A stretch of 59,261 nucleotides of DNA, counting the filler, from Dugesia japonica (Eukaryota): the NCBI GenBank assembly GCA_001938525.1. It is 4 parts of 4 records of this genome, joined end to end, with 100 filler letters (N's around TTAATTAATTAA, not from the genome) between each part and the next. Parts side by side here need not be neighbours in the genome. Positions count along the whole stretch, not along the records: positions 34,418 to 47,379 come from MQRL01638155.1; 3 more parts are not named here. One strand, written 5' to 3'. Every line of letters starts with the position of its first letter. The first letter of the stretch is position 1. The position numbers were made by a program, and so were the translations under genes. This document shows, in pieces, positions 18,990 to 55,565 of this stretch. The notes under the pieces were generated by a model. The model did no database searches and was not told where the DNA came from. It saw nothing but the letters and a program-made list of their open reading frames with translations.

Positions 18990-20039
18990 TATTATGTATA
19001 ACCTCCAATTATAATTTATTTGCCAAATAAGAACTATTAATTTGAGACATTTTTTATTCACTATTAACAAAGATAAGTAATTAAAAAATTATTCGGCAAA
19101 TAGAACTAATTGTATAATTATAGTTATTGTACTTCATTTCTATTGATTGCAATTTCGAATTATTATTTATTTTATGATACTTATCAATTTGAAATTAAAC
19201 TTTAATTTTCAAAATTTTTCATAAAAAATATTTAAATACATGAATTATTTTTCAATAATTTTCAATTAATTATAATTTTAAATTTTATAAATCTTATTAT
19301 TTTCAAATAATTTTTTTGTATTTAAAACTTTTAATAATTCTATTAATGTTTAGTTTTTATCTAAAGATTTTATCCTAAAAATTTATCTTCTATTATAAAA
19401 TTTATTTAAAAAATAAACTTTTGTTTCATGTTTAAAATTCAAATTATTTTAAATTACATTTTTTAAAATTCTCAAACAAATCAAAATCTAAATCTGAAAC
19501 AATTTGTGTATCAAATTAATCTTTTCTTAAAGTGTTCTTTTAAAAATTTTCAATTGCACATTTTATAAATTCGTTTTTAACAACAAATAATTTTTTTATT
19601 TCTAAAAATTATTTAAAAAGCAAAGATCAAAGTTGCTGTTCTTTTACTTTCAATATTTCAGCAAAGCCTTCTATAGGAACTATTTTTCAGGAAATTATTA
19701 TTACAAACTTTGACATAAAGACAGATTTTAAATTAATCTGAGAAAAATCAATTTTCCTTGAATTTTAATTGTAATATAAAATTAAATGAACATTTTCTCG
19801 GTTGATTGCTGCAAAAAATAATAATGAAAAATCGATTTTATAAATTTTTTCAAATGTTTTGACATAAAAACAAATTTAAAATGATTTTTTAAAAAATAAT
19901 TTAAGTTTTAAAACAATTTAANNNNNNNNNNNNNNNNNNNNNNNNNNNNNNNNNNNNNNNNNNNNNNNNNNCTTATAGTAATGAGTTTAATAAATAGATC
20001 TAATTTCTTGGACATATTAGTAAATCCGTGATGAATATT

Positions 20040-21720
20040 TTCAATCACACATCCAAATACTGGCATATGCTGATTATATTGTACTCATTGCAACTAATAT
20101 TACTGATCTCAATAGCATTATCGAAATTACTGTGCAAACTGCTGGTCTGATTGGTTTTGAATTTCGGCCAGAAAAGTGTGCATACATGAATCTGCCGTCG
20201 AATGACACAAACAGTCAAATCTCAATATGTAACCAAAAGATGAAAAAACGCTTGACAGATGATTTCTACCAATATCTTGGAGTGCCAATCGGTGATGGTA
20301 ATGACCAAAGTCCATATAAAATTATTGAAAATTTAATAGATGATGCAAAAAAGCTTGCAAACTCTGATCTTTGTGGATGGCAGAAACTCAAAGCCTATAA
20401 ATTATTTCTTCACTCAAGACTCATATTTGCTTTTAGAACTAGTGAAATAAAAACCACAGCTCTTAGTGCCTCGGAAAATAACAACACAAGCAAATTTAGG
20501 ACTGAACTCAGACGTAGGTTGAATCTTCCTAGTAAGTCTGAAATCTTTTACTTCTACAATTCAACAGAAAATGGAGGTGCTGCATGGTTTGACCTTCTTG
20601 ATGAGTACCACACACAATCCATTATTCAGGATTTTCGACTTTTCACTTCAAAATGTGAGCTAAAAAAGCAAATAAATCTAGATTCTTTGTGCTATATTGT
20701 CAGTCCTCGTTTTATGCAAAGACATCCAACAATTAAAGAGAGTCTTGAATGGATAAACGGAAAGCCATTTATATCTAATGAGAAATCAAAGAAAACTAAC
20801 TTTCAACGTCCACGAACCTCAGTCGAATACTTCAAAAAATTACATGAAATTCAAATATCCTTTGAAGTACAAAAGGATGAAGTCGTTATACACATTTCTT
20901 CAAATATTCGTGGCACATATATTATAACTTCAAACTTCCGCAACAAAGTTGCTATGATTATTCACAAAGCAATATATGACTCTTAGGCAGAAAAAGTAAA
21001 TAAAAGTAAGATTAACAATTTTGTATTTTAAGCAACTCAGAGGAGTCCGACATTCAATAAAATGATTTATAATGGCGCACTTACTGAACATCTAGGCAAC
21101 TTATTCACTGTCTTGAACAAATAGCTTAGCAATAGCTGCAAAGCCATACATCACGAATGAAAACGGAAAAAAATGTCGCAGGTGTAAAGCTGCTGATGAA
21201 ACACTGATGCATGTGTTGTATTTGATTACATTTACAATCTCTTACTAACAGCAGTACGTCATAATGATTGCCTTGATATAATTGTGAAGAACATCAAATC
21301 TCCAGAATATATTATTGAGGTCAATACTACCAGTAAATATATGAAAGGATCAATGGAAAGAATTGACTTACAAATAACCAATGCAGAGAAAAAGACTATA
21401 TACTTGGTAGACGTGAAATGTCCATTTGATTCTGAAACACTCTTAAGAAATGTTGACATTAAAAATCTCAATAAATACGATAATCTTAAAGTTAAAATAA
21501 AAGCAGCCAAACCCGAGTACAGAGTTGAATTGTGAACATTTATCTTTGGATTACTTGGTTAAATACCACCAAAAACCTCAAAAACAATTGAAGAAATTGG
21601 TATAAATAAAAGAATTATCAATAAACTACTTAAAGAATGTTTAATGAGTAACATAGCAAATTCAGCCAGGATTCGGGACTTCCACACAAAAAGAGAATAC
21701 ATAAATTTTGAAAAATAATG
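20040..21720 (+). mobile_element. Non-LTR retrotransposon (RT + CCHC + restriction-like endonuclease; NeSL/R2/R4-type), 5'-truncated and decayed
   Basis: LAYADY (decayed YADD), GFEFRPEKC, YQYLGVPIG, CRRCKAADETLMHVL, RHN, RIDL...IYLVDVKCPF...KNLNKYDNL (REL motif), FGLLG. In-frame stops present. Confidence 0.9.
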
Positions 21721-24894: not shown

Positions 24895-25267
24895 AAGAAA
24901 AATTAGCAAAAACAGAAGAATACGATGAAGTTTAAATAGAAAAATTAACTTCTTAAAGAAAATTGAAAATAATAATCATAAAAACAAAGTAATAATAAAT
25001 GTAGTTAGAAAATCAAATAAAATTACAAAACAATCACTTCAATAAAATCACTTTAGAAAATGACAGTGGAATTAGATACAAAAGATATAATTGATTATGT
25101 AATAAATGTTAATAATTAAAATAAAAAATGAGGAAATCAAAAAGATATAATAATATACTTAGTATTTATTATTTGTATTTTTATTTGTATAATTCCATAT
25201 TTATATATTCCTTTTATAATTTCTTATATAATTCCTTATATGAAATCTTATATTATTACAACGAAAA

Positions 25268-25957
25268 ATGACTACAGAAAGTAAAAATGATTTGTGTGAA
25301 AAAGCTGTAGAGTATATTAATATGGGTAATACCTTTGATTCAAAAATGTTAAATAAATCTCAAAAGATTTGTATGGCAGTAAAATATCAAGAATTAAGTT
25401 TTAAAAATCCAAATTTAAAGGATTCAACTATAGCTAAAGAAATGGGGATATATGTTCAAACATTAAATAAAACTTCTAGAGAATTTAATTTAAAACCTGA
25501 GAGAAAAAGATATCATAGAGTTAAATATTCTTTTGATGATAAATCACAAAAATATATAAAAGATAATTTTGGTGATTATATTTTTAATGTTAAAACTAAG
25601 TCTTTTGAAATTAATGAAACTCCCACAAAAAAAAGTTCAACTGATAAAAGAAATAATTTAGCATTATCAAAAGGACATAGGGATCTATCAAAATATTTAC
25701 ATTCTTCTAATATAAATAAATCATTATCAACAAGTTCTATTAGTAAAAAATTAAAAAGAACATCTAATGAAGTTGGAGGAGTAATTGGTGATAATGATGT
25801 ACATAATGAAATTAATAAAGCATTTACTTTTAAAACAAAATCATATCCATTTGTTAACAAAATCATAGCCACTTGTTTACAAAATAATACCATAACATTA
25901 TTTTTTTATTCAATTTCATTATTATTCTTTACCAAACGAGTGAAGAAAATAATATAA
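25268..25957 (+). CDS. Polinton A helix-turn-helix DNA-binding protein
   Basis: NPNLKDSTIAKEMGIYVQTLNKTSRE fits an HTH pattern (IAxxxGhxxxTL). Confidence 0.6.
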   Translation: MTTESKNDLCEKAVEYINMGNTFDSKMLNKSQKICMAVKYQELSFKNPNLKDSTIAKEMGIYVQTLNKTSREFNLKPERKRYHRVKYSFDDKSQKYIKDNFGDYIFNVKTKSFEINETPTKKSSTDKRNNLALSKGHRDLSKYLHSSNINKSLSTSSISKKLKRTSNEVGGVIGDNDVHNEINKAFTFKTKSYPFVNKIIATCLQNNTITLFFYSISLLFFTKRVKKII

Positions 25958-26072
25958 AAATATAAATCTCTTAAATTAAAAATCTTTTTCTTTATTTTTG
26001 CTTGTATATTTTAAGATTATCCATCTTCAAACTAGGTAAAAAATTTATACAACTAAATTGTCTTTACTTAAA

Positions 26073-29000
26073 ATGACTAGTAATCAGTTGATTTGTCCTA
26101 ATAAACTTTGTAAAAAAGTTTTAGAAAAAATCAGGGTTAACAGGTCATATAAGATCAAGATGTTGTTATTTAAACAGAGCAATATTTACTTGTTCAAAAT
26201 GTTTAAATACTTTTAGATCTATGAGGGGATTAACAGAACATTTGAATTCTACTAATTGTGGAAATTCAGAGAAGGTTCCGTTGTTTTGTGAAATTTGTAA
26301 TAAAAAGTTTACAAGACAAAATCATGCTAAAGCACATTTTAATTCTAATTAACATAAAGAAATGGTTAATAAAATATTATTTGATCAACTTCCTGGAGAA
26401 GAAGCAATTGACTTTGATACAGAAATTAGAGATATTTTCAGAATTTACAAAGATTATGAAATTGAATATTTTAGAGAAAGTAAAGTTGAATTAACTAGAA
26501 ATTTAGAATATCCAGAGGGCCCCCATTTAGAAAGACCTATAAAAATGATAATTGAATTTCAATCTGAAATCTTAGAAATTATTATAAAGTATTTTAATTA
26601 TGGAAAAAAGATTATTGTTAGAATGAGTGTTAATTGTAATTATAACAAAGAAATAAATGGAGAAAATGTTGAAAGAGTTTTTAATTCATATTCTCAAAAT
26701 AAACAATTTACAATTTTAAGTGAAATTAATGAAGGTGTTAAGGATATTTTAAATCAACTTCAAAGATTTATTGAAGATGAAGATAGAAACGAATCAGGGT
26801 GGAATTTAAATTATATTGTTGATTATAAAATAGAACTTTCTAAATATCAATCTTTAGCTGGTTCTTCATATCAGAAATTACCTTTTTCTAAATCAGGAGT
26901 AATTAATATTNNNNNNNNNNNNNNNNNNNNNNNNNNNNNNNNNNNNNNNNNNNNNNNNNNNNNNNNNNNNNNNNNNNNNNNNNNNNNNNNNNNNNNNNNN
27001 NNNNNNNNNNNNNNNNNNNNNNNNNNNNNNNNNNNNNNNNNNNNNNNNNNNNNNNNNNNNNNNNNNNNNNNNNNNNNNNNNNNNAAAATTAAATGATTTT
27101 AAAATAAATGTATTTACTGTAACTAATGAAAAAATAATTGAACCTTTATATATTAATCATTATGAAACTAAACCCAAACAGGAAGAAAATAAATTTAATC
27201 TATTAGTGTATAAAAATCCTTTTATTCTATGTAGAGATTTACAANNNNNNNNNNNNNNNNNNNNNNNNNNNNNNNNNNNNNNNNNNNNNNNNNNNNNNNN
27301 NNNNNNNNNNNNNNNNNNNNNNNNNNNNNNNNNNNNNNNNNNNNNNNNNNNNNNNNNNNNNNNNNNNNNNNNNNNNNNNNNNNNNNNNNNNNNNNNNNNN
27401 NNNNNNNNNNNNNNNNNNNNNNNNNNNNNNNNNNNNNNNNNNNNNNNNNNNNNNNNNNNNNNNNNNNNNNNNNNNNNNNNNNNNNNNNNNNNNNNNNNNN
27501 NNNNNNNNNTAAGTAAATATCAGCATTTAATTGAAAATGAATACAAAGAATTTACAGGAGAAAGTATTCATCAAGATTTCTTTTAATTTTTAAATGAATT
27601 AAATGATAAATTAAAAGATATAAAAGAAAATAAATTAATAGAAACTTATACTGAAACTAATCCCAACGGGCCCCATCATCCTAAATTTGAGGAAACAACT
27701 AAATGTAGATATTGTGATAAAGAGATTAAAACAGGGGAACAAGTACTCGATTATGATCATTTTAACGGGGAATTTAGAGGTTATTCTCATAGTAAATGTA
27801 ATTTACAAGACAAATCGATTAAAGGTTTATTTATTCCTTTTTATTTTCACAATGCTTCAGGTTTTGACAATCATTTATTTTTCAAAGAATTAATTAGTAA
27901 ATATCCAGGAAAAGTTAGAAGAATAATTCCACATTCAGATGAAGTTTACATTTCTTTTGAATTTGGAGCTTCGCGACCTGGAAATCCTAAAGAACCAACA
28001 ATAAGACTTTTAGACTCAGCTAGAATGTGCACTCAAACTTCAATTGAGAAAATGGGAGAAACGTTAAATAAATCAGGAAAATATAATCATTTAAGAACAT
28101 TTAATCTAAAACCAAAGAAAATATCATTTCCTTATGAATATGTAAAAGGAGAACATATCAATCAAGTAATTGAATTATTAAAAAGAAACCATAAACCATG
28201 AAAAAAAGATTTTTTCAATATATTAAGACAAAAGAAAATAACTGATCGAGAATATAGTGAATTTGAATAGATTTTAGTAATTTTAATAATTTATGGGATT
28301 ACATGTTATATTATATGAAACTAGATGTAATTATTTTAGCAGATTACTTTAAAAACTTTAGAGAAACTTGTTTAAATAATTATCAAATAGATCCAAGTTA
28401 TTGTTAATCAGCTCCATGATTAACTTGGAACGCTGGTATGAAATTTACCCAAGTTAAATTAAAATATGCTCAGAAAGAAACATATTATAAATTTATTAAA
28501 ATTGAAAGAGGTGGTTATTCTGGTGTTTGTGGTGAGAGATAAATCTTTTCAAATAATCAAAAATCAAATCCTAGATTTGAAAGACCAAGACAATTAAACA
28601 AAGCACAAGTTGGAGATGTATTATTTTCATTTATTAAAAATAAAACTGTACCAATAAATTGGAAAGAAGAAACATTTTTAAAATATCTAGATGAGAATTC
28701 TTTGTATGCTAGTTGCATGACAAAGCCTTTACCAACAGGAGAAATCTATGATTGTAAAGACTTGGAATATATTAAATCAACTGATAAAATAAATTATGTT
28801 TATAAAGTTGATTTAGAATATCCTCAAGAAATTCATGAGAAAACTAAATACTTTCCTTTAGCTCCTGAACCTTTAAATATTACAAAAGAAATGTTAGCAC
28901 CTTATCAATTATGTTTTCTCCGCGGAGCTCAAGCCGAAGGCGCAAACAAGAAATTATCCAAGAAAAATATAAAATTAACACTGAATCAATTTGATAAACA

Positions 29001-29992
29001 AAATTATATTGTATTAGGATCAACATTAGATTTATATTTAAAACTAGGAATGAAAATTAAGAAAATACATACAAAATATAAAATGACTACAAAACCTTGG
29101 TTAAAAGATTACATTCAATTTAATATTGATAAAAGAAACGAAGTTAAAAGAAATAAAGATGTTTTTGGAGATGTTTTTTTTAAGTTATTAAATAATGCTT
29201 TATATGGGAAAACTTTAGAAAATATAAGAAATAGGTGTAATGTTGAAATTGTAGATAATCACAAAGATTATCAAAATTTTACAATTAAAATTAATTATAA
29301 ATCTATTAAAATATTTACAGGAGAATTTAATCCTTCCAAAGCTCCTTCTAGTCGCAAGGTTTCCGAAGCTAAAACAGCAGCAGTTCATCTTTAAAAAACT
29401 AAATTAAAATATGATAAATTGCCATATATTGGTTTTACTATTTTAGAATATGCTAAAGAAGTTATTTACGATTTTATTTATAATCAGATGGATAAAGAAA
29501 TTCCTAATAAATATAAAATTCATTACGCCAACACTGATAGTATCTTTGTTGAAATAAAAGGTCACGAAAATCTAAACAAAGTAGAAAGTCTATTAGGAAA
29601 TAGTTTATTTCAAATGAAAGATGAAAAACCAAATAATGAAATAGTTAAATGTAATTTTATAAAAGCTAAAAGTTATTATTCAAGACGATAAAACTCTGGA
29701 AACTAAACATAAAGGTGTTTCTAAAGTAAATAAAATAGGGATGGAAGATTATGATAAAGTCTTGGAAAACCCTAAAGAAATAATTTATGGAACTATTTAT
29801 GGTTTAAAATCAAGGAAACATGAAATTGAATTAACTGAACAAAATAAAATAGCTTTAACTGGTTATGATGATAAAAAATTAATCGAGGATAATGGAATAA
29901 GAACTTGGCCACATGGAAATAAATACAAATGTGAAAATTGTAATCAATGGCATTTAAGATTTGATAAATTATCTGGTAAAATAAATAGTTAA
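26073..29992 (+). pseudogene. Protein-primed family B DNA polymerase (group-2 type) with N-terminal Zn fingers and EndoVII/HNH insertion
   Basis: Three Zn-finger-like motifs, ESGW and GSSYQKLP, CRYC...DYDHFNGEFRGYSHSKCNL, ExoII FHNASGFDNHLF, ExoIII YMKLDV, PolA YLDENSLYASCM, PolB KLLNNALYGKT, PolC YANTDS (D to N), KHKGV, ALTGYDDKK. Stops and frameshifts present. Confidence 0.95.
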
Positions 29993-30054
29993 AGTGGCTC
30001 CTGCAGGAGCCAGTTACTAAAATCAATTTAAAGACGGCGTCCGCGGACGCCACT
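29993..30054. terminator. Two GC-rich perfect palindromes between convergent stop codons
   Basis: TGGCTCCTGCAGGAGCCA (29995-30012) lies right after the pPolB TAA. GGCGTCCGCGGACGCC (30036-30051) lies right after the minus-strand TAG at 30053-30055. Terminator role is inferred. Confidence 0.5.
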
Positions 30055-30712
30055 ATTTATTTAATTTATTTATAACCTTTTGTTGTTCATTAATTTGATT
30101 TTCAAGTTTCTTTAATAAATCATTTTCAATTTTATCTTCTTTTTTATTATTTGAAATTAAATCTTTAACTTCTTTTATCATATTCTTGCTTATTGATATT
30201 TCTTCATTAGTTAAAATGTCATCACTAAGAGCTTTTTGATGAAATTAAAATAACTTATTTTTAACAGTTTCTAATTCAGGAATTAAATTTTTATACTTTT
30301 TCTTTTATGATTTTATTAAAGATGAATTCAAAGTACCAATAACTGGAATACAAGNNNNNNNNNNNNNNNNNNNNNNNNNNNNNNNNNNNNNNNNNNNNNN
30401 NNNNNNNNNNNNNNNNNNNNNNNNNNNNNNNNNNNNNNNNNNNNNNNNNNNNNNNNNNNNNNNNNNNNNNNNNNNNNNNNNNNNNNNNNNNNNNNNNNNN
30501 NNNNNNNNNNNNNNNNNNNNNNNNNNNNNNNNNNNNNNNNNNNNNNNNNNNNNNNNNNNNNNNNNNNNNNNNNNNNNNNNNNNNNNNNNNNNNNNNNNNN
30601 NNNNNNNNNNNNNNNNNNNNNNNNNNNNNNNNNNNNNNNNNNNNNNNNNNNNNNNNTATTTTTCTAAATTAGGATATAAATTATCACCTTCACCTTCGTT
30701 CTCATCTACCAT
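30053..30712 (-). pseudogene. Polinton A helical protein resembling the adintovirus 'gasderminX'-type ORF
   Basis: N-terminal LYPNL and C-terminal KALSDDILTNEE. Middle hidden by Ns; frameshift present. Family assignment is from recall only. Confidence 0.45.
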
Positions 30713-30736
30713 TTTATTTTAATGATAATTTAGAGA

Positions 30737-32335
30737 TTATTTTGAAATTTTAATATTATTAATATAAATATTTGCTGGTAAAATTAAAGTAATTCTTTCC
30801 ATTGGTTTATGTTTTTCTAAAAATTGATTAATATTTATTCCAAGATTAAATTCATCTTTTTTAGTAAAATTAAATTCGTGTTCTTCTAATTTATTATTAA
30901 TTGTTATATAGATTTAAAAATAAGAAATATCACAATAACCATTAAATAAAAAATTTACTTGTTCTAATGGTTTTTCAAAATAAAAATAAAGTTCTAATGG
31001 TTCTTCAAGAAAATAATATTGATAAGGTTTTTCTTGGGAAACACTTTTTAATATTCCTTTTCTTTTTATTTTAAATGGAGTTAAACCAGAATGATAAGGT
31101 AATTCATTCTTTTTTATTAAAGTAGTTAATCTAAAAAGTATTTTTGGGTTTATTATTTTTATTTTATCAGAGTAAGGAAAATAATTATCAATTATATGTT
31201 TAATCTTGTTTTAAAACTCTTGTCTATAAAGTTTATTTTGTGGTGCGCTCTTTTTAATTTTCATAGTATAATCATTAATATCATTAATACGATCAATATG
31301 AAGATCATTTTTTATTTTATTAAATTCTTCTTCTAAAGAAATTAAATGATTATTTAATAATTCAATTCTCTGTGATAGTTTTTCTAATTCTAAATCACTT
31401 TTAATAAATTTCTCAGGTGAACAAGTACTTGATAAATTATTAATTTCTTGTTTAAGATTTTTTACTTCTCTAAGAATATCATTTAATTTAGTTTCAAGCC
31501 TTGTTTTGGCACTCCAAACATTATCTCTATAATTAATTACATTATTTTTTAATTCATTTATTTTAACAAGTAAATCAGCTTTATTTTTAATCCAAGTTTT
31601 ATTATTTTCTAAAATTTGTTGAATATAAATATATTGAGTATTTAACTGATTTGATAAAATAGAAACTTGTTTTTCTAAATTATTAATAATTCCATTAAAG
31701 TATTTTAAATTAATAGCATCAAGTTCATTTTTAGGTTTATTAATAATTTTTAAAGAAGCAATTGAATCACCACTTTCATTAACAAATCTTTTATCATTAG
31801 TTAATGATTCTAATTTTAATTTAGCAGAAACATNNNNNNNNNNNNNNNNNNNNNNNNNNNNNNNNNNNNNNNNNNNNNNNNNNTAAATTATTAATTTCTT
31901 GTTTAAGATTTTTTACTTCTCTAAGAATATCATTTAATTTAGTTTCAACCCTTGTTTGAGCACTCCAAACATTATCTCTATAATTAATTACAGTAGTTTT
32001 TAATTCATTTATTTTAGCAAATAAATCAGNTTTANTTTTAATCCAAGTTTTATTATTTTCTAAAAGTTGTTGAATATAAATATATTGAGTATTTAACTGA
32101 TTTGATAAAATAGAAACTTGTTTTTCTAAATTATCAATAATAGAATTAAAATATTTTAATAGCATTAAGTTCATTTTTAGGTTCATTAATAATTTTTAAA
32201 GAAGTAATTGAATCTCCACTTTCATTAACAAAATCTTTTATCATTAGTTAATGATTCTAATTTTAATTTAGCAGAAACATGTTTTAATACTTCTGTATTA
32301 TTTTGACTATTTAAAGTTTCTCCAAATTTATTCAT
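30737..32335 (-). pseudogene. Polinton A fibre-like protein (neck motif, coiled-coil stalk, C-terminal head)
   Basis: MNKFG start, RFVNESGDS...PKNELDAINLKYF (fibre/adhesin neck-like PxxxxDAxNxxY), long heptad region. A ~400-bp segment appears twice around an N gap. Confidence 0.55.
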
Positions 32336-32339
32336 TTAT

Positions 32340-32747
32340 TTAAAGTAATTCTTTAAAGGTAATATATAATTCATTAATAATTTCATCAAAAGATCGGGGC
32401 CCTTTGGGATATTTAAGTGAATTTAAAAAATATAAACATAATAAACCACAAATACTTGTATCAAAAGGTTGAACTTGAATTTTATTATAAATACTTACAT
32501 GTTTTTCTATTTCTTTAAATGGTTTTAAACCATAAGAATCAAAATAATAACCTTGGTAAAAAGCAACCCANTGAGTTCCTTTTTGATTTGTATTTTGATA
32601 ATTAATTATTAGTGGCTCCTGCAGGAGCCACTTTGAGATTTCATCCTTCATTAATATTTCCAGTTCTAAATTAAAAAAATCAGCTATAGAATACAAATCA
32701 AAATTAGTTTTAGTATTTATTCCAAAAGTTTTAAGAAAGTCTAGGAT
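32340..32747 (-). CDS. Adenain-like cysteine maturation protease (Polinton A)
   Basis: GT(H)WVAF, YYFDSYG and QVQPFDTSICGLLC supply the catalytic H/D/Q/C. The 5' end lies in an N gap. Confidence 0.9.
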   Translation of the reverse strand: MLDFLKTFGINTKTNFDLYSIADFFNLELEILMKDEISKWLLQEPLIINYQNTNQKGTXWVAFYQGYYFDSYGLKPFKEIEKHVSIYNKIQVQPFDTSICGLLCLYFLNSLKYPKGPRSFDEIINELYITFKELL

Positions 32748-32797
32748 NNNNNNNNNNNNNNNNNNNNNNNNNNNNNNNNNNNNNNNNNNNNNNNNNN

Positions 32798-33451
32798 TAT
32801 GAACTAATAAAGAAATAGTTTCATTATCAAAATCTATAGTATTATTATTTTCATCTATAATATTAAATAATCAATACATTTTGTATTTAATCTTGAGTAA
32901 ATTGGAGTAGAAGGTCTTTTTATAATTTTAAAACCAAAACTAACAGTATTTACTGGAAAAGAACATAATAAATTCATTGGTAAGGACTGACCGTTGGCAT
33001 TAATATAATTACCCTTGATTAAGTTACAAGTTATGTTAATCATATTTATATTTAAAATATCAACTTTATTTTCTGAATAATATTTTCCTTTTGAATAAGT
33101 TTTAAGTAAAAAACCTAAAATAGTATGANNNNNNNNNNNNNNNNNNNNNNNNNNNNNNNNNNNNNNNNNNNNNNNNNNNNNNNNNNNNNNNNNNNNNNNN
33201 NNNNNNNNNNNNNNNNNNNNNNNNNNNNNNNNNNNNNNNNNNNNNNNNNNNNNNNNATAAGCACCTGGTTCTATAGTTACTAATTTATCATTATAATAAA
33301 AAGTATTATTTTTATTAGTAATATTAAAAATAATATTATAACAACTAAAAGATAATAAAGCCATTTCATAGTTTGAGTCTAATTCTATTGGAAATTTTAA
33401 ATCAACTTTTAAATCAGATTCTTTACCAGCAACTAAAAATTGATGAGACAT
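32798..33451 (-). CDS. Minor capsid (penton-like) protein, Polinton A
   Basis: PIELDSNYEMALL...NITNKNNTFYY...IEPGAY, INITCNLIKGNY, and a frameshifted C-terminal DENNNTIDFDNETISL. Confidence 0.8.
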
Positions 33452-33456
33452 TTTAT

Positions 33457-34221
33457 CTATAAAAAATACTTGTTTTTATATACATTAAATTTTTCTCTGG
33501 TTATTAGTTTTTGCTTTAATAATTCTTTACAAACAGATTTAATTTCTTCTTCTAAATTATTATGTCCAGCTTTTACAGCTGAATTTAATAATGTTAATCT
33601 TTCAAATAAAGAAACTGGGTTTAATCCATTACCTATAATAGGAGTTTCTTTTATAGAAGTTTCTTTTTCAGAAGTTTCACTAATAGATGAAGTCTTTTTA
33701 CCAATTAAAAATTTATAATATTTATTATTGTGATGAAATGTAATATTAAATTTGTTTANNNNNNNNNNNNNNNNNNNNNNNNNNNNNNNNNNNNNNNNNN
33801 NNNNNNNNNNNNNNNNNNNNNNNNNNNNNNNNNNNNNNNNNNNNNNNNNNNNNNNNNNNNNNNNNNNNNNNNNNNNNNNNNNNNNNNNNNNNNNNNNNNN
33901 NNNNNNNNNNNGATAAATTATTTTTTGAAAGTTTTTAACATTAATAACTTCTGTTAAAAATATTGGTATAACTGCTGGTGTTTTTAAAAAATCAATATTA
34001 CAATTAGTATGTGAATAAAATGGAATTCTTTTCTCAAAAAGGTTAGAAGATTTATCCAAGTTTTCAATTGCTTTAATAGTAAGAAGTTGTTGAATAGTTA
34101 AATCAGCTTGTAAATTTCTTGATTCAATTACTTCTGTAGTAAATAAATTACCATAATNATCTCGTGCTTTAATTAATTCTTTTAATTGTTTTATTCTTTC
34201 TAATGTTTGTTCAGTATCCAT
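33457..34221 (-). CDS. Conserved Polinton ORF of unknown function
   Basis: C-terminal PVSLFERLTLLNSAVKAGHNNLEEEIKSVCKEL resembles the LxxRLxLLxxxxxAGN motif of group-2 Polintons (from recall). It is preceded by IIGNG. Confidence 0.6.
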   Translation of the reverse strand: MDTEQTLERIKQLKELIKARDXYGNLFTTEVIESRNLQADLTIQQLLTIKAIENLDKSSNLFEKRIPFYSHTNCNIDFLKTPAVIPIFLTEVINVKNFQKIIYXXXXXXXXXXXXXXXXXXXXXXXXXXXXXXXXXXXXXXXXXXXXXXXXXXXXNKFNITFHHNNKYYKFLIGKKTSSISETSEKETSIKETPIIGNGLNPVSLFERLTLLNSAVKAGHNNLEEEIKSVCKELLKQKLITREKFNVYKNKYFL

Positions 34222-34222
34222 T

Positions 34223-34317
34223 TTAAAAAGAAATTACATAGGTTTTTAAATATAATCCATTTCCTTTTATTTTAACTTTAATTCCATTTTTAAAGTTTTT
34301 AGTAATCATTATTAATT
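34223..34317 (-). CDS. 3' end of a Polinton core-like protein (IKGNGLYLK)
   Basis: GxGLYL motif. Truncated by the spacer. Confidence 0.4.
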
Positions 34318-40649: not shown

Positions 40650-40910
40650 TTACATGATGACAGGTAATGTATACAAAGCTTTAAACACTTTTTATATGCA
40701 AAATAATCTCCGTGATTATAATATGGACAAAAAATATTATCTGGTATAGATAGCTGTTAATGCTCATTTGAGTTATAATTAACAATTCAAAGATTCGGGA
40801 AAAATTTCTTGAATGTATTTATTTTCTTTCCATTGACATAAAACATTGGATCGTTTGGAATTGCTTTCAAGTCATTGATTATTCTAGATGGATCAAAGTT
40901 TAAATCTATA
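40650..40910 (-). pseudogene. Small ORF after MCP, possibly a degenerate protease
   Basis: Occupies the usual protease slot. FYVNG...YNSNEHxQ...FCPYY loosely resembles FDSYG...Q...CGxY, but no catalytic HW is seen. Confidence 0.25.
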
Positions 40911-40916
40911 TATTGT

Positions 40917-42193
40917 TTATACAACTACTATTCCATTCTTGGTGAGTTGAATTTCCGAATCAAATACTCCATATGCATACATTGTCACTTATTCCGTCAA
41001 GGATTTATGAAATTGCACATCCAACTTGAGATTTCCGGTTTTTAGTAGTTGCGGTTGATCAACTGCAAAGTCCAGAGCCAAAACAAAGGTGAAAAACGTA
41101 TACGAGTCTTTAAATTCCTTCATTGTAATACCATTGTTTCGATCTTCATTTAACAGACCCACATTACGAATAATCGATTGCACATATGCCTCAGTATAGT
41201 CAGTATCAAAGTCAGTAGTATATGTTTCTCGATAATCAACGTTTCTTGCCAAGCATATTGACTTTACACCAAAATTTGAGAATGTCAAACGAAATGAAAC
41301 GTAATCATCACTTGCTTGTTTCGATGATTGGAAAGCAATCAAAACAAATTTTAGTAATCATTCGTCGGAAAAGATATCCTTTATATTCTCCATGCGAATT
41401 TTTCGGAGTCATAAAGTGTATGATTTTTGTTTTCTGGAAAGGGTAGATTGCATTTTGATGTTCCAATCCTTGGCGATGTCCAATCATAATCGACTGATCA
41501 ACACGAACACGTCACACTACTAATTTTGCTTCGATAATGTACGCTTGTGGATTCATCTCAACTGTTTCAGTACACTTGGTATATTAGTAAATTACCGAAC
41601 CTATATTTCTCGTCAATTTGATTGTCACATTGACTCCCGGCAATAAATACTTTGGTTGGTGAAAGTTATCCAAATTAAATGCACCGCAGAGTGTTAGTTT
41701 AGAAGACGTTTTAATCCAACATTTTCTCTTGTCATCTTCTTTATGATAACCAATAGCTTCAAGAAAACTAATTTTCGTATCCGATCCAAAATTCCTTGCG
41801 GCTTCAATTACTGCCTTTGCATATACATATCATTTGTATCTTCAACTTTTACATTATTTAGTGTTAATGATGCTTCTTTGAATAGAGTATGAAACAAATA
41901 ATTTGAAGAAATCCTCTTGGTAGTATCAGTTAACGCAAAATCCGTCACATCATGCTTTACCGTCTTTTACCGTCATTTTAATAATGAGCAACGTATCATT
42001 CAAATCCAAGTAATCATTACCTGAACTAATAATATTGAATTCAATTTGTTGTCCAGCATACCCAGTTATAGAATCATTTGGGTAGATTTCTTCAAATGTA
42101 GAGCTTTCAACCACACCCTGTGGAATATTGTGATCAAAAAGCGATAATTCCGTTTTGCCGGCATAAATGCTTATTTTGCAAAGATGGTTCCAT
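40917..42193 (-). pseudogene. Major capsid protein (double jelly-roll), Polinton B
   Basis: KTELSLFDHNIPQGVVE...IYP...IEFNI...DYLDLNDTLL, HTLFK, FHQPKYLLPGVNVTIKLTRN, GNLKLDVQF. Frameshifts and stops present. Confidence 0.92.
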
Positions 42194-42551
42194 TTAATCG
42201 TTGTCTTATGTTTATAGTCAATGTTATTTTATTTTTCCGTTTACGTATTCTACTACCATGCTGTCCACCAACAACTTCCTTTAATACATTAAGTGTATTT
42301 TCCTTCACATCCGGCAACATATTCATTGCATAGTTCTTGATTAATTCTTTAAATGACTGCTTCTCGCTTATAACATCATCAACAGTTTTTCGTGCTGCTC
42401 GCCCCACTGACTTTGCAATTGGAATTCCAAATTTCTGCAAAATTGGAATTGCAAAACGACTAATTCTATGTAGCCATTTTTCACCACCTTGCTGTTGTTG
42501 ACCACCGATAAAATATGGCAAAATTCCACACATTTGTGGATGACTATACAT
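42171..42551 (-). CDS. Basic core-like (PM-type) Polinton protein
   Basis: FIGGQQQQGG...RFAIPILQK...VGRAA..TVDDVI plus a basic C-terminal tail. Sits between penton and MCP. Confidence 0.75.
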   Translation of the reverse strand: MYSHPQMCGILPYFIGGQQQQGGEKWLHRISRFAIPILQKFGIPIAKSVGRAARKTVDDVISEKQSFKELIKNYAMNMLPDVKENTLNVLKEVVGGQHGSRIRKRKNKITLTINIRQRLNGTIFAK

Positions 42552-42604
42552 TGTAATAATAGCTCGATCAAAATTTCAATAATGAATCAAATTGTAATCA
42601 AATT

Positions 42605-43957
42605 GTTTATACTTGTCGAAATGTAGATTTAAACTTGTTTTTGATCCATATGGAAAATCAATCAATCTTCCCGCATCATCACGTATTTTACTTCAATTTT
42701 GTTGATGGACGAAGATGATAAAGGTAAATACATTTTATTTTCAAGTCTTACATGCACAACATCAACAAATGAATGCTTATTACTATCAACCCATATACTC
42801 CTCAATACTGGCACGAGTACATCGCCAACCAGAATTGGATCGACTATTGATGAAATAATATATAGTTGTCTGATACCACCATGTAATAACGGTTTATGTA
42901 AACCTTTTACTTGTTCAGTAGACATGTAGAATTTCGCAGAAGGAAGACCAAGTATTAGCGAAAGACTCTCATCAAATGATACATATTCAATATTATCAAG
43001 TAATTTAAACATGACCAGTCGAAATTTTGAATCTATAATAAATTCTTTAAATATTTTGTGGCATAATTTTATAAATGACGATACCAGATTATCCAGATCC
43101 GTAACTATTAAATCGCTTTCAAATTCAAAATAATTTATTTCTGTTTTGATTTCAGTAAATTTTAATTTGACATCAGTTTTGGCAAAAGTATGCAACATTT
43201 TAGTACCTGATTCGATAAATGAATCCATTGATTTGTTTTTCATATTTTGCGAATTAAACCCCAGTAACCGAGCATCAAGTAATGAATTAATCTCCAATTC
43301 CATATTGCAATCAGATTTGATAATTATTTTCTTTTCAACATTAATACTGATTTCGCAATTAGTTTTATTTTTAAATCCAGAAACAATAGGTTTTCCATTT
43401 TTAATCTCAACATTTACATTTTCTCCAATTTCTTTTATTTTAGCCTTCATTCCTCAATAGTATTAAACTTTAATTTTAAAGTTATTGATGGAATATTTTT
43501 TTAGAATCAACTGCTCATCAGATTCAATAACTGAAACTAATNNNNNNNNNNNNNNNNNNNNNNNNNNNNNNNNNNNNNNNNNNNNNNNNNNNNNNNNNNN
43601 NNNNNNNNNNNNNNNNNNNNNNNNNNNNNNNNNNNNNNNNNNNNNNNNNNNNNNNNNNNNNNNNNNNNNNNNNNNNNNNNNNNNNNNNNNNNNNNNNNNN
43701 NNNNNNNNNNNNNNNNNNNNNNNNNNNNNNNAAATTTATCTTCAATTTTTATCACTTCTCTTATTTTATATTCAATTTTTTCAACCTTTCCGTATAGTCT
43801 GTGGACAATAATCAAAAACAAATTCTGTCATGGCAACTTCCCAATAGTCATCTTTTAAATTGATAGTGTTCTCATACTCGACGAAATACTGGCACGCATT
43901 ATTATCAGGTCGAGTTCTTGAACAACTATTGCTTGGTAAAATCATATAGAAACTCAT
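42605..43957 (-). pseudogene. Minor capsid (penton-like) protein, Polinton B, with long central insertion
   Basis: MSFYMILPSNS...PDN...INL..YWEVAMTE at the N-terminus; LYIISSIVDPILVGDVLVPVLR...MYLPL...IEV at the C-terminus. Confidence 0.9.
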
Positions 43958-44962
43958 TATTGGATTTGAGATGCTTGAATCCACGTAGGCTTTGAGTATT
44001 CATGCCATTCAACTAAATATTGTTTATATTGTCCTTGACCTTTGGTTTTGAGAATTGATTTAATTCGATATATACTTGGTTTTTCCGGCAACACTTGCAA
44101 TTCTTGCGCATAAAAGTTGCCTTGAATAATAATATCATCTTCATCACGTATTACATACATGACCGGTGTTTGTCTAGTGTTGATTTCTGAGAATTGAAAA
44201 ACTTCATCACTCCAATTATTATCAAAGCTTTTGATGAATGGTGTTAAACTAATTCGAGAAATTCGTACATGCTGACCAATTTTATATTTTGGTTTTGGCT
44301 TATTATTGATGACATACTGCCTAAAATGATTATCATCATCTGTAACATCAATTGGTTTCTTTCCTTCAATACATCAGTGTTCGGAATGATAAAATGCATA
44401 AATCATTTTTGGTTAAACATGCATCTACTTTTTGCTACCTTGTTTTGTAAACAACTTGTTTAATCGAGTGCGCAAAGTTCGATTAAATCGGTCAACTAAA
44501 GCTGCCTTGTATTGAAAAAACACTGAATAGTGTAATAATCCATGTTGCTTTAGTGATGATTTGACTTGGGTATTGTAGAATTCCTTAACTAAATAGTTTA
44601 AATAGCTCTTGACTGTACATTTCTGAGCAGTTAAAGCCAACAACATTTCCTTGCTAGATTTACGCTTTACTGGAACAACTCTAGCATACCGACTAAATAC
44701 ACGTCAAAATATATCTGTAATCATTATTTATGCTTGCATATAGAATAATTTCCATCAAATCTAATTGCCATAGTCTATTTACTCCTGTAACAATGTATTT
44801 ACGAATTGGATACCGATTCCGGATTGGTTTATTCAGACTGTATGATAGTTGATTGCTTAATCACTTCTTTGTCTCTTTTACCAAAACATTTGCAGCATTT
44901 GCAAGCTTTAAAATACCGGCGTATCCAACCGGGTCTTTTAGATTATACCACAATTGTTCCAT
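43957..44962 (-). pseudogene. Retroviral-type (DDE) integrase with C-terminal chromodomain, Polinton B
   Basis: WYNLKDPVGYAG, WQLDL, RYILTC..SRYA..VPVK.K, KEFYN, KAALVDRFNRTLR, NWSDEVF, GNFYAQEL, YLVEW...TWI. Broken by indels. Confidence 0.93.
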
Positions 44963-45092
44963 CCACTTTATCGTATCTTTTACTTGACTTTGAAAATCAA
45001 CAACGAATTTTTACTGAAATGTTTGGTATATTGGAAGAGAATGGCGCTACTCCCATTTATTTCGAGATCTGGAAAAAATCAAACTTGATTGT

Positions 45093-45520
45093 TTATATAG
45101 AATCAATGATTTTCTTTGTAGCATATAATGTGGCAGCCCCAACTTCTCCGGTTGCAGCAGCTTTGCCCAACAGACTTAAATCAGTTAAAGTGCAGCCCAA
45201 AGAAATCCATTTCCATGCTGTGGTGAACCGTAATATACTTAATTATTTTTTTTCATCTTTTCATTTTGTATTGGAAAATGTTCAATCGATATTTCTTACC
45301 ACCATCTACATCAACTCGACCCAGAACAATTTGTTGCAAAACACTAATGAAATAATTAAAAAGAAATTCTGGCATCAAATGCATCATTTGTCATCGGGAA
45401 TTTGATGGAGCTTTTAAAATAATTTTTAAGTAAAGTATGCTTCGCAAAAATCGTCTCAAACGAAGGGTTGATTTGCTACCACCCTTTTGTTTGATGACAA
45501 CCTTTTTAAATCAATATATT
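45093..45520 (-). pseudogene. Small Polinton core-like protein with QxGxG motifs
   Basis: KQKGG, LQQIVLGRVDV, QHGNGFLWAAL. Frameshifted. Sits between ATPase and INT. Confidence 0.5.
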
Positions 45521-45548
45521 TATTATTTTTAATAACTAATAATTTTGT

Positions 45549-46170
45549 TTATACCAAAGGCTTGTAAACAGTTATTCCTTGCATAGTGAATATATATTTT
45601 TTTAGTCGTTCATCATCGGGACATTGTTGTGTAAAATCAATAAATAGGTAACCATGTGTTTTTGTGGTAACATAGTGAAATGCATCAGATAAAGATCCTT
45701 TATTGTGTGGAAATGCTTGACGAAAAACATAGTCAACAACGGTTTGATCTCGAGGATTCTTGAATCAAATCAAATAGTGTACATTAAGATTACAAGTACG
45801 ATGCTTCCGCCTTGATGAAAAAGATTTTGGGTGATGAAGATTACAGTTACATCACCATGACGAGCAGTTTTTTAAAGAGATTATTAAAATCGTCTTGTTT
45901 ATTTGCCTCTTGATACAATAACATAACCTGTCTTTAATCGTTTGTTCCAATCATAATCAAATCCATCGATTATTGTCATGTTTTTTAATTTACAAAATTC
46001 TCTACCAGTCAATCCAGATTCGCCACCACCACCTTGATGCCNATAAATATGTTTGAACTTTGTCTGAAACAATTTGCTTTGCAATAATTTACAAACAAAA
46101 TGTTTTTCCACTTCCGTTTGGACCAACTATTTGAAAAACTGCATTGTTTTGTAGTAAAATTTTTTTTATG
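45549..46170 (-). pseudogene. FtsK/A32-family packaging ATPase, Polinton B
   Basis: Walker A IVGPNGSGKT, ARHGDVTVIFIT-QNLF, RTCNLNVHYLIxFKNPRD, GYLFIDF...DDERL. Frameshifts present. Confidence 0.92.
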
Positions 46171-46192
46171 TAAATAGTAATAATTGATTTTG

Positions 46193-46220
46193 TTTATATG
46201 AAGCATGTAAAAATATAAAG
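46193..46220. promoter_or_regulatory. Back-to-back TATAAA boxes in the ~80-bp divergent ATPase/TBP-like intergenic region
   Basis: Minus-strand TATAAA at 46193-46198 and plus-strand TATAAAG at 46214-46220. Weak evidence given the AT content. Confidence 0.3.
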
Positions 46221-46252
46221 CCGGTAGGTGTTGTTCTTCAAAAATTCAAACA

Positions 46253-46698
46253 ATGTTATCAAATATTAATTACAAGGCTAGTGTGGTTAATTATAAAACT
46301 CAGCTTCTACGATTCAATACTGTGTACCTCGGCAATGTGTACTAAAGATGGATGATTTTACGATAACTATATTTGAATCAGATAAATGTCGAATCATGGG
46401 TTGTAAATAACCAATCATGAATAAAGAAATTACTTGCAAAAATCTTAAATTCCAAATAGATTGCATTCAATTCATTACAGTGACATGCAATCTTAGAAAA
46501 CTAGTAAATTTATAAAGATTAAATGATTATGATGATTGTTGGTTTGAACCTAAATTATTTCCTGCATTACGTTTCAATAAATATAAACCTTTATGTGTTA
46601 ATGTTTTCACTAGTAGAAAAGTTGTAATTCTTGGACTAAAATCACTGGATTATAATGAGATCATTAATGAAATTACAAAATATTTATTGGAAATTGTT
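46253..46698 (+). pseudogene. Intronless TATA-binding-protein (TBP)-like gene inside Polinton B
   Basis: MLSNINYKASV.../..PRQCVLKMDDFTITIFESDKCRIMGCK*...IQFITVTCNLRKLVNL*RL...WFEPKLFPALRFNKYKPLCVNVFTSRKVVILGLKS aligns with both TBP repeats (IQNIVGSCD...YEPELFPGLIY...LIFVSGKIVLTGAK). One frameshift and two stops. Confidence 0.85.
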
Positions 46699-46739
46699 NN
46701 NNNNNNNNNNNNNNNNNNNNNNNNNNNNNNNNNNNNNNN

Positions 46740-47302
46740 ATACATTTATACATTTCTATTTTTTAATATTATGATGGATTATTCATTATTAAAAAACAAT
46801 GAAAAATCATTCTCAAATCCAACCAAAGTCATGAAAAAACACAATTCAAACAGTTTGTATCCACAACAACAACAGAAAATCCAAAATTTGATTTCGCGAA
46901 AATATAATACTTATGGTTTTCACTTGTAGGATGAACCGAATATTATATCATTTCAACAAAATCGGGTTATTTAAAGATGAAAGCCAAGAAGAAAAATATG
47001 CAGAATGGCTTATTTTAAGACCAAAATGCTATAGCCTATAGAAAAAAGATTCAACAACAACGATGAATACAAAGGTAATCAGTCTAAAGCAAACAGAAAT
47101 TGAGCATCAAGATTATGTCAATATATACAATGGAATTTCATATGAATTAACAATTGTTGATCAATGGCGTTTCAGATCGATTAATCATCAGATATACTCG
47201 ATTGTAAGTAGGAAACGTGCATTATCATGTTTAGATGATAAACGTTTTTGTAATGAGAAAAATACAAGTATGGCCTATGGCCACTATAAAATAAATAAAT
47301 AA
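46740..47302 (+). pseudogene. C-terminal remnant of a group-2-type pPolB, Polinton B
   Basis: KIGLFKDE...EWLILRPKCYS and FRSINHQIYSI...KRALSCLDDKR...AYGHYKI. Confidence 0.85.
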
Positions 47303-47379
47303 TTAAATTTTATTACAATTGCAATTATTGCGAGAATAATTGTTGGACTTAACCATTGATCGTTTTATAGAATTCATTT

Positions 47380-48602: not shown

Positions 48603-49025
48603 ATGTATAAAACCAAGCGAGTAAACCGAAGGCCCCGTTACATCTGGTTACATATAGACGGGAGAGATCGATATTATATAGAATGGTCAGAGTTCCAGGA
48701 GATGATAAGAAAGGAGAAAAAGCATTATGTCGATGAAACCGCCGATTTGAGAGCAGATCTGGATATCGTAAATCGGCGGATCGCAATAATGGAGGCGAAT
48801 TTACAGCTCCTCACGACCCAACGGGATCGGCTAATGGCTATTATAAAGGAAACCGAGCCGGAAATAACTACGTTGGATAACCACGATCCAGAAGTCGAAA
48901 CGAAATTCAGTTTTTCGGAGAATTCTATGTGGGAATCACAGGCTGAAGAAGAAGAACGAGAAATTATGAGGGATTTGATGGGCCTGAGTGGTTTTGCTAC
49001 AAATCCCTCTGTATATAAAAAATAA
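48603..49025 (+). CDS. Hypothetical intronless 140-aa protein with coiled coil and acidic tail
   Basis: ATG-initiated, raised GC, AATAAA overlapping the stop. No recognisable family. Confidence 0.45.
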   Translation: MYKTKRVNRRPRYIWLHIDGRDRYYIEWSEFQEMIRKEKKHYVDETADLRADLDIVNRRIAIMEANLQLLTTQRDRLMAIIKETEPEITTLDNHDPEVETKFSFSENSMWESQAEEEEREIMRDLMGLSGFATNPSVYKK

Positions 49026-49586
49026 ACGTGTACAAAGTGTGAATTGAGAAATTTTTGTTGATTTTTATTGAGATTTGGTTAAAGTAAATAAAAAGTGATA
49101 TGTATGTCACGATGAGCTGCAGATGCAGAGATTGAATAGTTTAGGTTTAAAATTTTGTTTTGTTGTTTCTTAAATTAAAAATTAGNTGAGTTATTACTAA
49201 ACGAGAGGACTAAAAAGAATTTTTATCAGTAAAGCAAAACGATTAAATGTGATTTGTTGTAGAGGAAGATACCGGCAATCATGACAATTAATTTAGTACG
49301 TATTGATGTGAGCTAATATTCTTATTTTGTTGGTTATGAAATGGTTTTGGTTTGAGTTTATGCAAGGTAATATTCGAGGTGTCATCGGCCTTTTCACGAT
49401 TCGTAATATAAAAGGAGATGATAATGTTATTAAAGTTCGAAAATCATCACAATAATTTTACTACTGTTTTGTCATGCATTTACATTAATATTTCACTAAG
49501 TAACAACTTTTAAAAACAGCTTTTATGATTTTAGTGNNNNNNNNNNNNNNNNNNNNNNNNNNNNNNNNNNNNNNNNNNNNNNNNNN

Positions 49587-49880
49587 ATGTCCACAAAAGA
49601 TGTCATGGATATGCAGAAGAGATGGAAAGAGGAGAAACGCGAGTTACGGAATGAGATTCTTCGTCTTAAAGGGGCACAAACTAAAGCTGACGGGAAGTAC
49701 ACGCAATTGAAAGAAAAAGAACTCGCTCTCCAGCAGGCCAACAGATTGATGGCAGAAGTGATAAAAACCTACGCCGATCGTGAGTCCAGTATGTTTAACA
49801 CGTTGCGAATATTGTGGCTGAACTATCAGCCGTTGAAAGAAGATTCAGCTAAAGATAGTGTGGTGTATCTGGATGGTTAG
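49587..49880 (+). CDS. Hypothetical 97-aa coiled-coil protein
   Basis: Open, raised GC, heptad pattern. TATAAAAG at about 49407 upstream. Start abuts an N gap. Confidence 0.45.
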   Translation: MSTKDVMDMQKRWKEEKRELRNEILRLKGAQTKADGKYTQLKEKELALQQANRLMAEVIKTYADRESSMFNTLRILWLNYQPLKEDSAKDSVVYLDG

Positions 49881-55303: not shown

Positions 55304-55565
55304 AATTAATTATTTTACAATTGCAATTATTGCGAGAATAATTGTTGGACGTAACTATTGATTGTTTTGCAGATTTCATTAAAATAAATCTTCTATCAAA
55401 TTTTTTTTTGAATTTGATAATATTTAGAATTTTCGACTAATTCTTCGTCAGTAATTGACTTTTTTGACTTTAAAGTCAATTCCCGACGAAGACTAAGTCG
55501 AAAATTCGCAATGTTATTAAAAACAAAAAAATATTTGATGGAAGCTTCTATTTTAATGAAATTCA
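55304..55565. repeat. Head-to-head pair of a ~160-bp dispersed repeat with hammerhead-like core; other copies at about 2175-2290, 10675-10830, 14340-14460, 15175-15215, 16575-16700, 47305-47379
   Basis: Shared tail GATCAATGGTTAAGTCCAACAATTATTCTCGCAATAATTG and head CTGA(C/A)GA-A-GAC-loop-GTC-GAAA. Confidence 0.7.

Follow-up and report, generated by a model that had tools for sequence, protein, structure and literature searches.

In this work we analysed a stretch of 59,261 nucleotides of DNA (hereafter the window), with a G+C content of approximately 25% and presumably from an animal host. It carries a decayed element in which the packaging ATPase, integrase and major capsid protein genes are all present, which is the core of the Polinton/Maverick/adintovirus group, and next to them a broken gene for a TATA-binding protein (TBP). 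The gene names of this element were borrowed from relatives, by matches to Pox_A32, rve, DNA_pol_B_2, Peptidase_C5 and the double-jelly-roll capsid cluster. The main features are the following.

46253..46698, plus strand: broken short-form Polinton TBP gene (translation, Pfam PF00352, relatives)
46955..47302, plus strand: C-terminal remnant of a protein-primed B-family polymerase (iE 1e-35)
45561..46160, minus strand: decayed A32-like packaging ATPase (profiles and tblastn; relative L011 matches Pox_A32, E 4.8e-6)
45247..45453, minus strand: decayed small conserved gene, cluster C9 (tblastn/profile; no family match)
43963..44971, minus strand: decayed retroviral-type integrase (profiles/tblastn; relative L018 matches rve, E 1.1e-12)
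42609..43957, minus strand: putative minor capsid (penton) gene, decayed; the name follows from its position and size only (no Pfam match)
42174..42566, minus strand: small basic gene, cluster C14 (profiles/tblastn; no significant family match)
40920..42162, minus strand: decayed major capsid protein gene (relative L018 fits the double-jelly-roll cluster at 0.98)
40652..40855, minus strand: 3' part of conserved gene C3 (profiles/tblastn; no family match)
25244-34233: second, different Polinton-type element; its plus strand encodes polymerase B (matches to zinc finger, endonuclease VII-like and DNA_pol_B_2 families), its minus strand a protease and a putative penton

A preliminary description of the locus had proposed a TBP of ~150 amino acids at 46253-46698, broken by one frameshift and two stops, and this was seen in the six-frame translation of 45900-47000. 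The TBP-like frame starts at 46253, changes between 46318 and 46327 and contains in-frame stops at 46408-46410 and 46513-46515; the own stop codon of the gene is not visible, because its 3' end enters a run of N (46699-46739) at 46699. The gene is intronless. With X at the stops, the piece downstream of the frameshift matched PF00352 with an E-value of 2.7e-9 (37.2 bits, for a cut-off of 22.9), and the same piece used as a query found at least 35 solved TBP sequences at E<1e-3 among the 37 matches listed, with archaeal, fungal, plant and human chains among them. The window gene is thus a TBP gene, and it is a dead, non-functional copy.

It had also been noticed that the TBP gene is decayed to a similar degree as the viral genes, and the counts are indeed comparable: 2 stops and 1 frame change in ~445 nt for TBP, 5 stops with at least 2 frame changes over ~595 nt for the ATPase, 4 stops and 1 frame change for the integrase, and 9 stops and 1 frame change in ~1240 nt for the major capsid gene. 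Stops or frame changes occur in every longer gene of the element, and the start codon of the ATPase is not intact. Since the ATPase homology on the minus strand begins at 46160, which corresponds to position 5 of the profile, the gap between the two genes is ~80-90 bp, in agreement with the head-to-head arrangement at ~80 bp that had been described. On its other side, the TBP gene is followed only by the C-terminal remnant of the polymerase. An adenain-type protease was not found in the window copy by profiles and tblastn, the region being deleted; in relatives the protease is seen at the C3 region, and TBP-bearing relatives carry it (Peptidase_C5, E 3.7e-5). No long inverted repeat flanks the copy within 34000-59261; the copy itself is truncated, with N runs at its borders.

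In three RNA runs mapped at 80% likeness, depth was low on both strands, mostly from reads less than 95% alike, and no site with many molecule starts was seen, so that these runs are uninformative on expression and start sites. In a probable DNA contig set, at 80% likeness, all 30 bins were covered, by 29,626 contigs, which indicates that organism A has many copies related to this one, but the number also takes in unrelated records attracted by low-complexity ends. None of the 8 DNA pieces listed spans both TBP and ATPase. At 47170-47379, DNA and RNA depth lies far above that of the rest of the element, and this is probably a host repeat or a low-complexity stretch.

The search for relatives yielded 100 proteins among 101 candidates with the window piece, mostly 144-160 amino acids long and 37-68% identical, and 215 representatives at E<=0.001 in a 50% library, ordinary TBPs among them. 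Over the part downstream of the frameshift, the window TBP is 68% identical to P0002; its identity is 45-59% to many other relatives and about 25% when compared with cellular TBP. With an alignment of 71 relatives, 77 metagenome loci were fetched, of which L001-L071 were kept; the weak L072-L077 (25-32% identity) and the giant-virus loci L078-L079 were left out of all counts. The intact TBP of L011 matched PF00352 in two stretches with 65.2 bits. Of the 71 related contigs, 32 bear one or more of the genes for ATPase, integrase, putative penton, capsid, protease and polymerase, most of the remaining contigs being short, and 17 of the 20 contigs of at least 4 kb carry Polinton core genes. Polymerase B lies alongside TBP on L011, L018, L048, L056, L057 and L062. 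Gene order is variable. TBP and ATPase occur together at 21 loci: at 18 of them the ATPase lies downstream of TBP in the same orientation, at two the pair is divergent and separated by other genes, and at one the ATPase is far upstream, while a direct head-to-head pair was seen at none. The TBP gene thus does not always lie between ATPase and polymerase.

In a quick tree of 53 rows (LG+G4), the window protein and its three nearest relatives fall inside the clade from Polinton contigs, with SH-aLRT values of 97 and 99 for this placement. The cellular-type comparison rows numbered 12, vertebrate TBPL2 among them. AU tests, from which the long-branched L044 TBP ORF was left out, rejected a grouping with the vertebrate TBPL2 rows (p-AU 7.7e-5) and with all 12 cellular-type rows (p-AU 2.4e-5). 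The retrocopy of a host TBP, under which the window protein should group with cellular TBP, is refuted by this placement and these tests, and the gene is found on many Polinton-type contigs. Median pairwise dN/dS was 0.198 for the TBP genes of the loci (67 overlapping, non-independent pairs) and 0.104 for the ATPase (7 pairs); the intact relatives of the window TBP are under purifying selection. Taken with the Polinton context, the tree and the AU tests, this shows that the TBP gene is a maintained part of these elements, and the suggestion that a Polinton lineage carries a minimal viral TBP is thereby borne out.

The family comprises a short form of ~145-155 amino acids, without an N-terminal tail, and a long-form subclade of 163-179 amino acids (L048, L054, L056, L057, L060, L062, L064-L066 and L068). 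Among 11 still longer proteins (337-2000 amino acids) nine are rodent TBPL2 and no fusion was seen, which is weak evidence. Five divergent two-lobed TBP-like proteins without genomic context (P0204, P0237, P0243, P0218, P0228) lie between cellular TBP and the Polinton clade, and on a giant-virus contig (L078:869-2566) a TBP of 566 amino acids is fused with a SAP domain. TBP-bearing elements also carry accessory genes, among them a ubiquitin-conjugating enzyme, RING fingers, a leucine-rich repeat and KilA-N (accessory loci L011:225-719, L044:1710-2168, L048:13315-13893, L029:1918-3327 and L067:606-1739). The small genes C1, C17 and C22 often flank TBP (L018:1788-2135, L028:667-1236, L049:1088-1828), have no significant family match and carry no box of the kind described below; their products presumably resemble single-strand DNA-binding proteins. 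The acidic and His/Cys motifs of C3 (40652-40855, L032:5870-6352), which has no Pfam match, may be those of a DEDD-type nuclease.

The fold is that of TBP by profile, by Foldseek and by structure alignment. The predicted model of the intact relative P0003 (pLDDT 95.4) superposes on human TBP over 152 of 153 residues (Z 13.7, rmsd 2.7) as a two-lobed saddle, and Foldseek matched it to TBP chains with E-values down to 1.8e-9 and to giant-virus TBPs down to 1.2e-9. Like cellular and archaeal TBP (PF00352), the Polinton protein thus has the two-lobed saddle, and it shares with them the C-lobe helices, three of the four DNA-intercalating phenylalanines and both TFIIB glutamates. The motifs TIFES, LFPA and NVFTS that had been read as carrying these phenylalanines are present in the window sequence, and the matching residues are invariant in 71/71 relatives; conservation in alignment A1 is inflated because matches were gathered by shared words. 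Unlike in cellular TBP, the first phenylalanine is replaced (by Pro in the long-form register), and this loss of one of four could weaken DNA binding. Of the pair of positions that contact TFIIB, one is E in 67 and D in 4 of the 71 relatives and the other is E in 71/71; section 11 of PMC7221094 describes two C-lobe glutamates as contacting TFIIB.

The second difference from cellular TBP lies in the N lobe, where the basic helix 2 of the eukaryotic protein is absent in the short form and acidic in the long form. In the P0003 model the strands of this lobe are predicted to be present and the long helix 2 missing, and the N-lobe linker of the short form mostly measures 16 residues versus 29. The long form keeps helix 2, with both N-lobe helices, and has 0-2 basic (K/R) and 3-7 acidic residues there, versus 8 basic residues in helix 2 of two cellular-type rows. 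According to section 12 of PMC7221094, the basic surface of this helix binds TFIIA, TAF1, Brf1/2 and Mot1. The acidic helix of the long form suggests, from its sequence, that the regulator surface may have been lost stepwise.

A third difference concerns the DNA face, which is polar in the Polinton protein at the positions of V71, V122, I194 and L205, within an overall identity to cellular TBP of ~25%. In the 71 relatives, N69 is invariant on this face, V71 is replaced by N in 68, V122 by R in 70, T124 by M in 71, I194 by R in 70 and L205 by N in 71, in yeast residue numbers, the N-lobe register being less sure than the C-lobe register. The long-form subclade, although more distant, shows the same changes nearly throughout. 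Two of these residues, I194 and L205, are among the three TBPm3 positions that alter TATA specificity in yeast, and the 3' half of the TATA box is read by the N lobe (PMC1636458).

A short motif precedes the minus-strand genes of the window element. The candidate promoter elements are the following.

46214..46220, plus strand: TATA-like TATAAAG, 33-39 nt upstream of the TBP start; candidate host-read early promoter
46191..46198, minus strand: TATAAACA box in the divergent gap before the ATPase (motif search, as for all boxes below)
45546..45553, minus strand: TATAAACA box before C9
45090..45097, minus strand: TATAAACA box before the integrase region
44021..44028, minus strand: TATAAACA box within the 3' end of the integrase, ahead of the putative minor capsid gene
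42604..42611, minus strand: TATAAACA box before C14
42209..42216, minus strand: TATAAACA box inside C14, before the major capsid gene
40914..40921, minus strand: TATAAACA box at the capsid gene end, before the deleted region leading into C3

The window holds 7 copies of TATAAACA on the coding strand and 0 on the other, one ahead of each of 7 minus-strand genes, and in 300 shuffles the mean was 0.42 and none reached 7. The TATAAAG at 46214..46220 differs from these boxes and, by its sequence and position, may be an early promoter read by the host.

For the related loci, contigs were merged at 80% TBP identity into 45 groups, and ATAAAC was searched within -110..-5 of each gene start. It was found upstream of the ATPase in 17/17 groups, the capsid gene in 9/9, the putative penton in 10/11, the integrase in 10/12, C14 in 6/6, C19 in 7/7, C9 in 5/7, the phospholipase in 5/6, C3 in 7/11 and the protease in 3/6, so that the box is not universal among late-type genes, as the last two show. 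Upstream of TBP itself it occurred in 4/44 groups, of C1 in 1/14, of C7 in 0/5 and of C17 in 1/7. When pooled, 69/80 late-type genes had the box, versus 7/71 TBP and neighbour genes, 2/80 on the opposite strand and 26/473 windows of coding background; the late/early grouping was not blind, as it was made after the upstream sequences had been seen, and the counts are not independent events, because contigs were merged only at 80% identity and are related by descent. Both subclades have the box (31/33 for the long form, 48/59 for the other), and the long-form subclade also carries a phospholipase A2-like gene.

The box is preceded by T or C in 57/61 cases and followed by A or G in 61/61, giving (T/C)ATAAAC(A/G), and its distance to the gene start has a mode of 30-39 nt and ranges from about 10 to 100 nt. 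A C at position 7, after ATAAA, is found at 75/106 sites before late genes versus 8/55 before others. In raw counts, TBP genes are preceded by an ordinary TATA (TATAWA-type, -70..-25) in 21/44 groups and by an initiator-like sequence in 25/44. In several boxes the TAA is also the stop codon of the preceding gene. The controls are thin: the other Polinton of the window, which has no TBP match, has no box before its protease or putative penton, and one virophage-like contig without TBP has the box before 1/16 ORFs. In viral_contigs, the search for TBP-negative control Polintons gave no match by ATPase profile, capsid protein or vertebrate TBPL2, and the polymerase profile found one virophage-like contig.

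The gene content of these elements is that of the Polintons/Mavericks/adintoviruses described by Starrett et al. 2021 (PMC8502044), with ATPase, integrase, capsid genes, protease and protein-primed polymerase. The preliminary description had left open whether such a TBP had been reported. A figure legend of the same article does label a TBP on the map of a related virus, which may be a member of this family (PMC8502044). The text has this one legend entry, with no family, structure or promoter analysis of TBP, and its one text supplement gave no TBP match. In openly searchable text, which leaves subscription journals, figures, bioRxiv supplements and adintovirus record annotations outside the search, searches for a Polinton TBP or the TATAAAC box led only to the Starrett legend; the main text of further Polinton papers contained no TBP or TATA, and the text and readable supplements of PMC7221094 no Polinton.

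Nucleocytoviricota and mirusviruses often encode their own RNA polymerase. Their TBP resembles that of the Polintons in being virus-encoded and in lacking the eukaryotic N-lobe regulator surface, but those viruses mostly carry their own TFIIB (PMC7221094), whereas in the Polinton element, of ~12-20 kb, no RNA polymerase was found, and no TFIIB among the representatives scanned. The TBP mimics of herpesviruses (KSHV ORF24, EBV BcRF1, CMV UL87) would be alike in having a viral TBP fold with a more polar DNA face, and they serve TATT boxes before late virion genes where the Polintons have TATAAAC, the promoters of early genes probably being host-like in both (PMC12529657). Unlike the Polinton protein, ORF24 is described there as large, as binding Pol II directly and as depending on five further proteins of the virus, and TFIIB binding does not fit its model, while the Polinton TBP is a bare core that keeps the TFIIB contact (PMC12529657). 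With 145-170 amino acids this core is not a large vTBP of the herpesvirus six-protein-complex type, and the likeness is one of analogy only. There is no close sequence relation, BcRF1 having been reached by Foldseek only at E 6.5e-3. By this analogy, the Polinton TBP system may represent a variant form of viral TBP-driven late transcription, working like the herpesvirus mimics without being a member of their group.

The TBP gene and the box bear on two questions: by what means the capsid and packaging genes of Polintons are controlled, and whether Polintons are still virus-like. The element has a TBP gene of its own, and TATAAAC boxes stand ahead of its packaging and capsid genes, so that it is likely to carry a switch of its own for the particle-building genes. 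We regard it as probable, with some reserve, that the viral TBP is made early, recognizes the box and directs host TFIIB and Pol II to the late genes; binding, timing and recruitment are what we infer from the observed fold, Polinton context, purifying selection, conserved residues, and box with its placement. The host machinery would transcribe the TBP gene itself early, from a TATA/initiator promoter of the ordinary kind. With its altered DNA-reading face, the protein would prefer the C-containing box, which host TBP would bind only with distortion, and once bound to the box would bring host TFIIB and RNA polymerase II to the packaging, integrase and capsid genes, the two kept glutamates providing the TFIIB contact. 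Because the surface for TFIIA, TAF1, Brf1 and Mot1 is absent, such a protein might work outside TFIID and resist eviction. The outcome would be a one-gene early-to-late switch. For a TATA box with C-G pairs to fit host TBP, these must adopt Hoogsteen pairing (PMC4402545); by its title, PDB entry 1qn3 is a crystal of host TBP on a C(-25) TATA variant.

That crystal structure is one of the points in favour of a different account, in which host TBP, or another protein of the element, reads the box as a TATA variant, and the viral TBP is a decoy for TFIIB or represses host or early promoters. The viral TBP has retained the TFIIB-contact glutamates while one intercalating phenylalanine is lost, and the TBP-negative set is too small to tie the box to the TBP gene. 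A decoy, however, needs no re-tooled DNA face, yet those positions are the most conserved in both subclades, and reading by host TBP hardly explains why the C at position 7 is so strict, so that we find this account rather improbable. The preliminary description had named redirection of host Pol II and decoy as possible functions; the redirection part is favoured by these sequence data over the decoy part, because the box is common to packaging and capsid genes. Slightly lower still we place the possibility that the viral TBP reads the box together with a second, element-encoded partner, TFIIB-like or another small protein, the two forming either an orthogonal system like that of giant viruses or, as in herpesviruses, part of a system of several proteins. 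Most TBP-bearing viruses also encode TFIIB (section 11 of PMC7221094), and the small neighbours C1, C7, C11, C17 and C22 have no family match; against such a partner, no TFIIB family match was found among 62 + 15 locus proteins (cluster representatives, from partial contigs) and 33 window pieces, and the glutamates are conserved at cellular levels versus ~40% in viruses with their own TFIIB, as given in the same source (PMC7221094).

The motif contains ATAAA and often overlaps the preceding stop codon, which would suit a polyadenylation (3'-end) signal of the preceding gene, the role of TBP then being unrelated. This is very improbable in our opinion, since the ATPase box sits in a divergent gap where no same-strand gene ends, C3, the last gene of the run, ends without a box, and where a late-type gene is followed by TBP a box stands at the end of the late gene in only 5/19 groups. 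As for a one-off retrocopy or a captured host TBP that landed in the element, the window gene is intronless and broken as such a copy would be, but its identity of 68% to a database relative and 45-59% to many, versus roughly 25% to cellular TBP, its rejection by the AU test, and the presence of relatives on Polinton contigs and under selection leave this account with a negligible probability.

In its broadest form, recruitment by the viral TBP would extend to a large clade of animal-associated Polintons, with a one-gene early-to-late program based on the smallest natural two-lobed TBP, re-specified for TATAAAC, docking host TFIIB and having shed the host-control surface in two steps (an acidic helix, then none); we give this generalization about even chances. 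If true, elements of only 12-20 kb would have a virus-style timed program, the box would be a sequence marker for their late genes, and the protein would be a TBP of naturally altered specificity, in which DNA reading and TFIIB contact are uncoupled from control by TFIID and Mot1.

Several further features were seen in the window. Two coiled-coil-like open frames at 48603-49877 matched no family above the cut-off. An additional integrase-like fragment lies at 9544-9744 (iE 5.8e-6), the remnant of a reverse-transcriptase element at 20024-21532 (RVT_1, E 4.4e-5), and a hairpin at 55387-55547 has two arms of 76 nt, 83% complementary and 9 nt apart.
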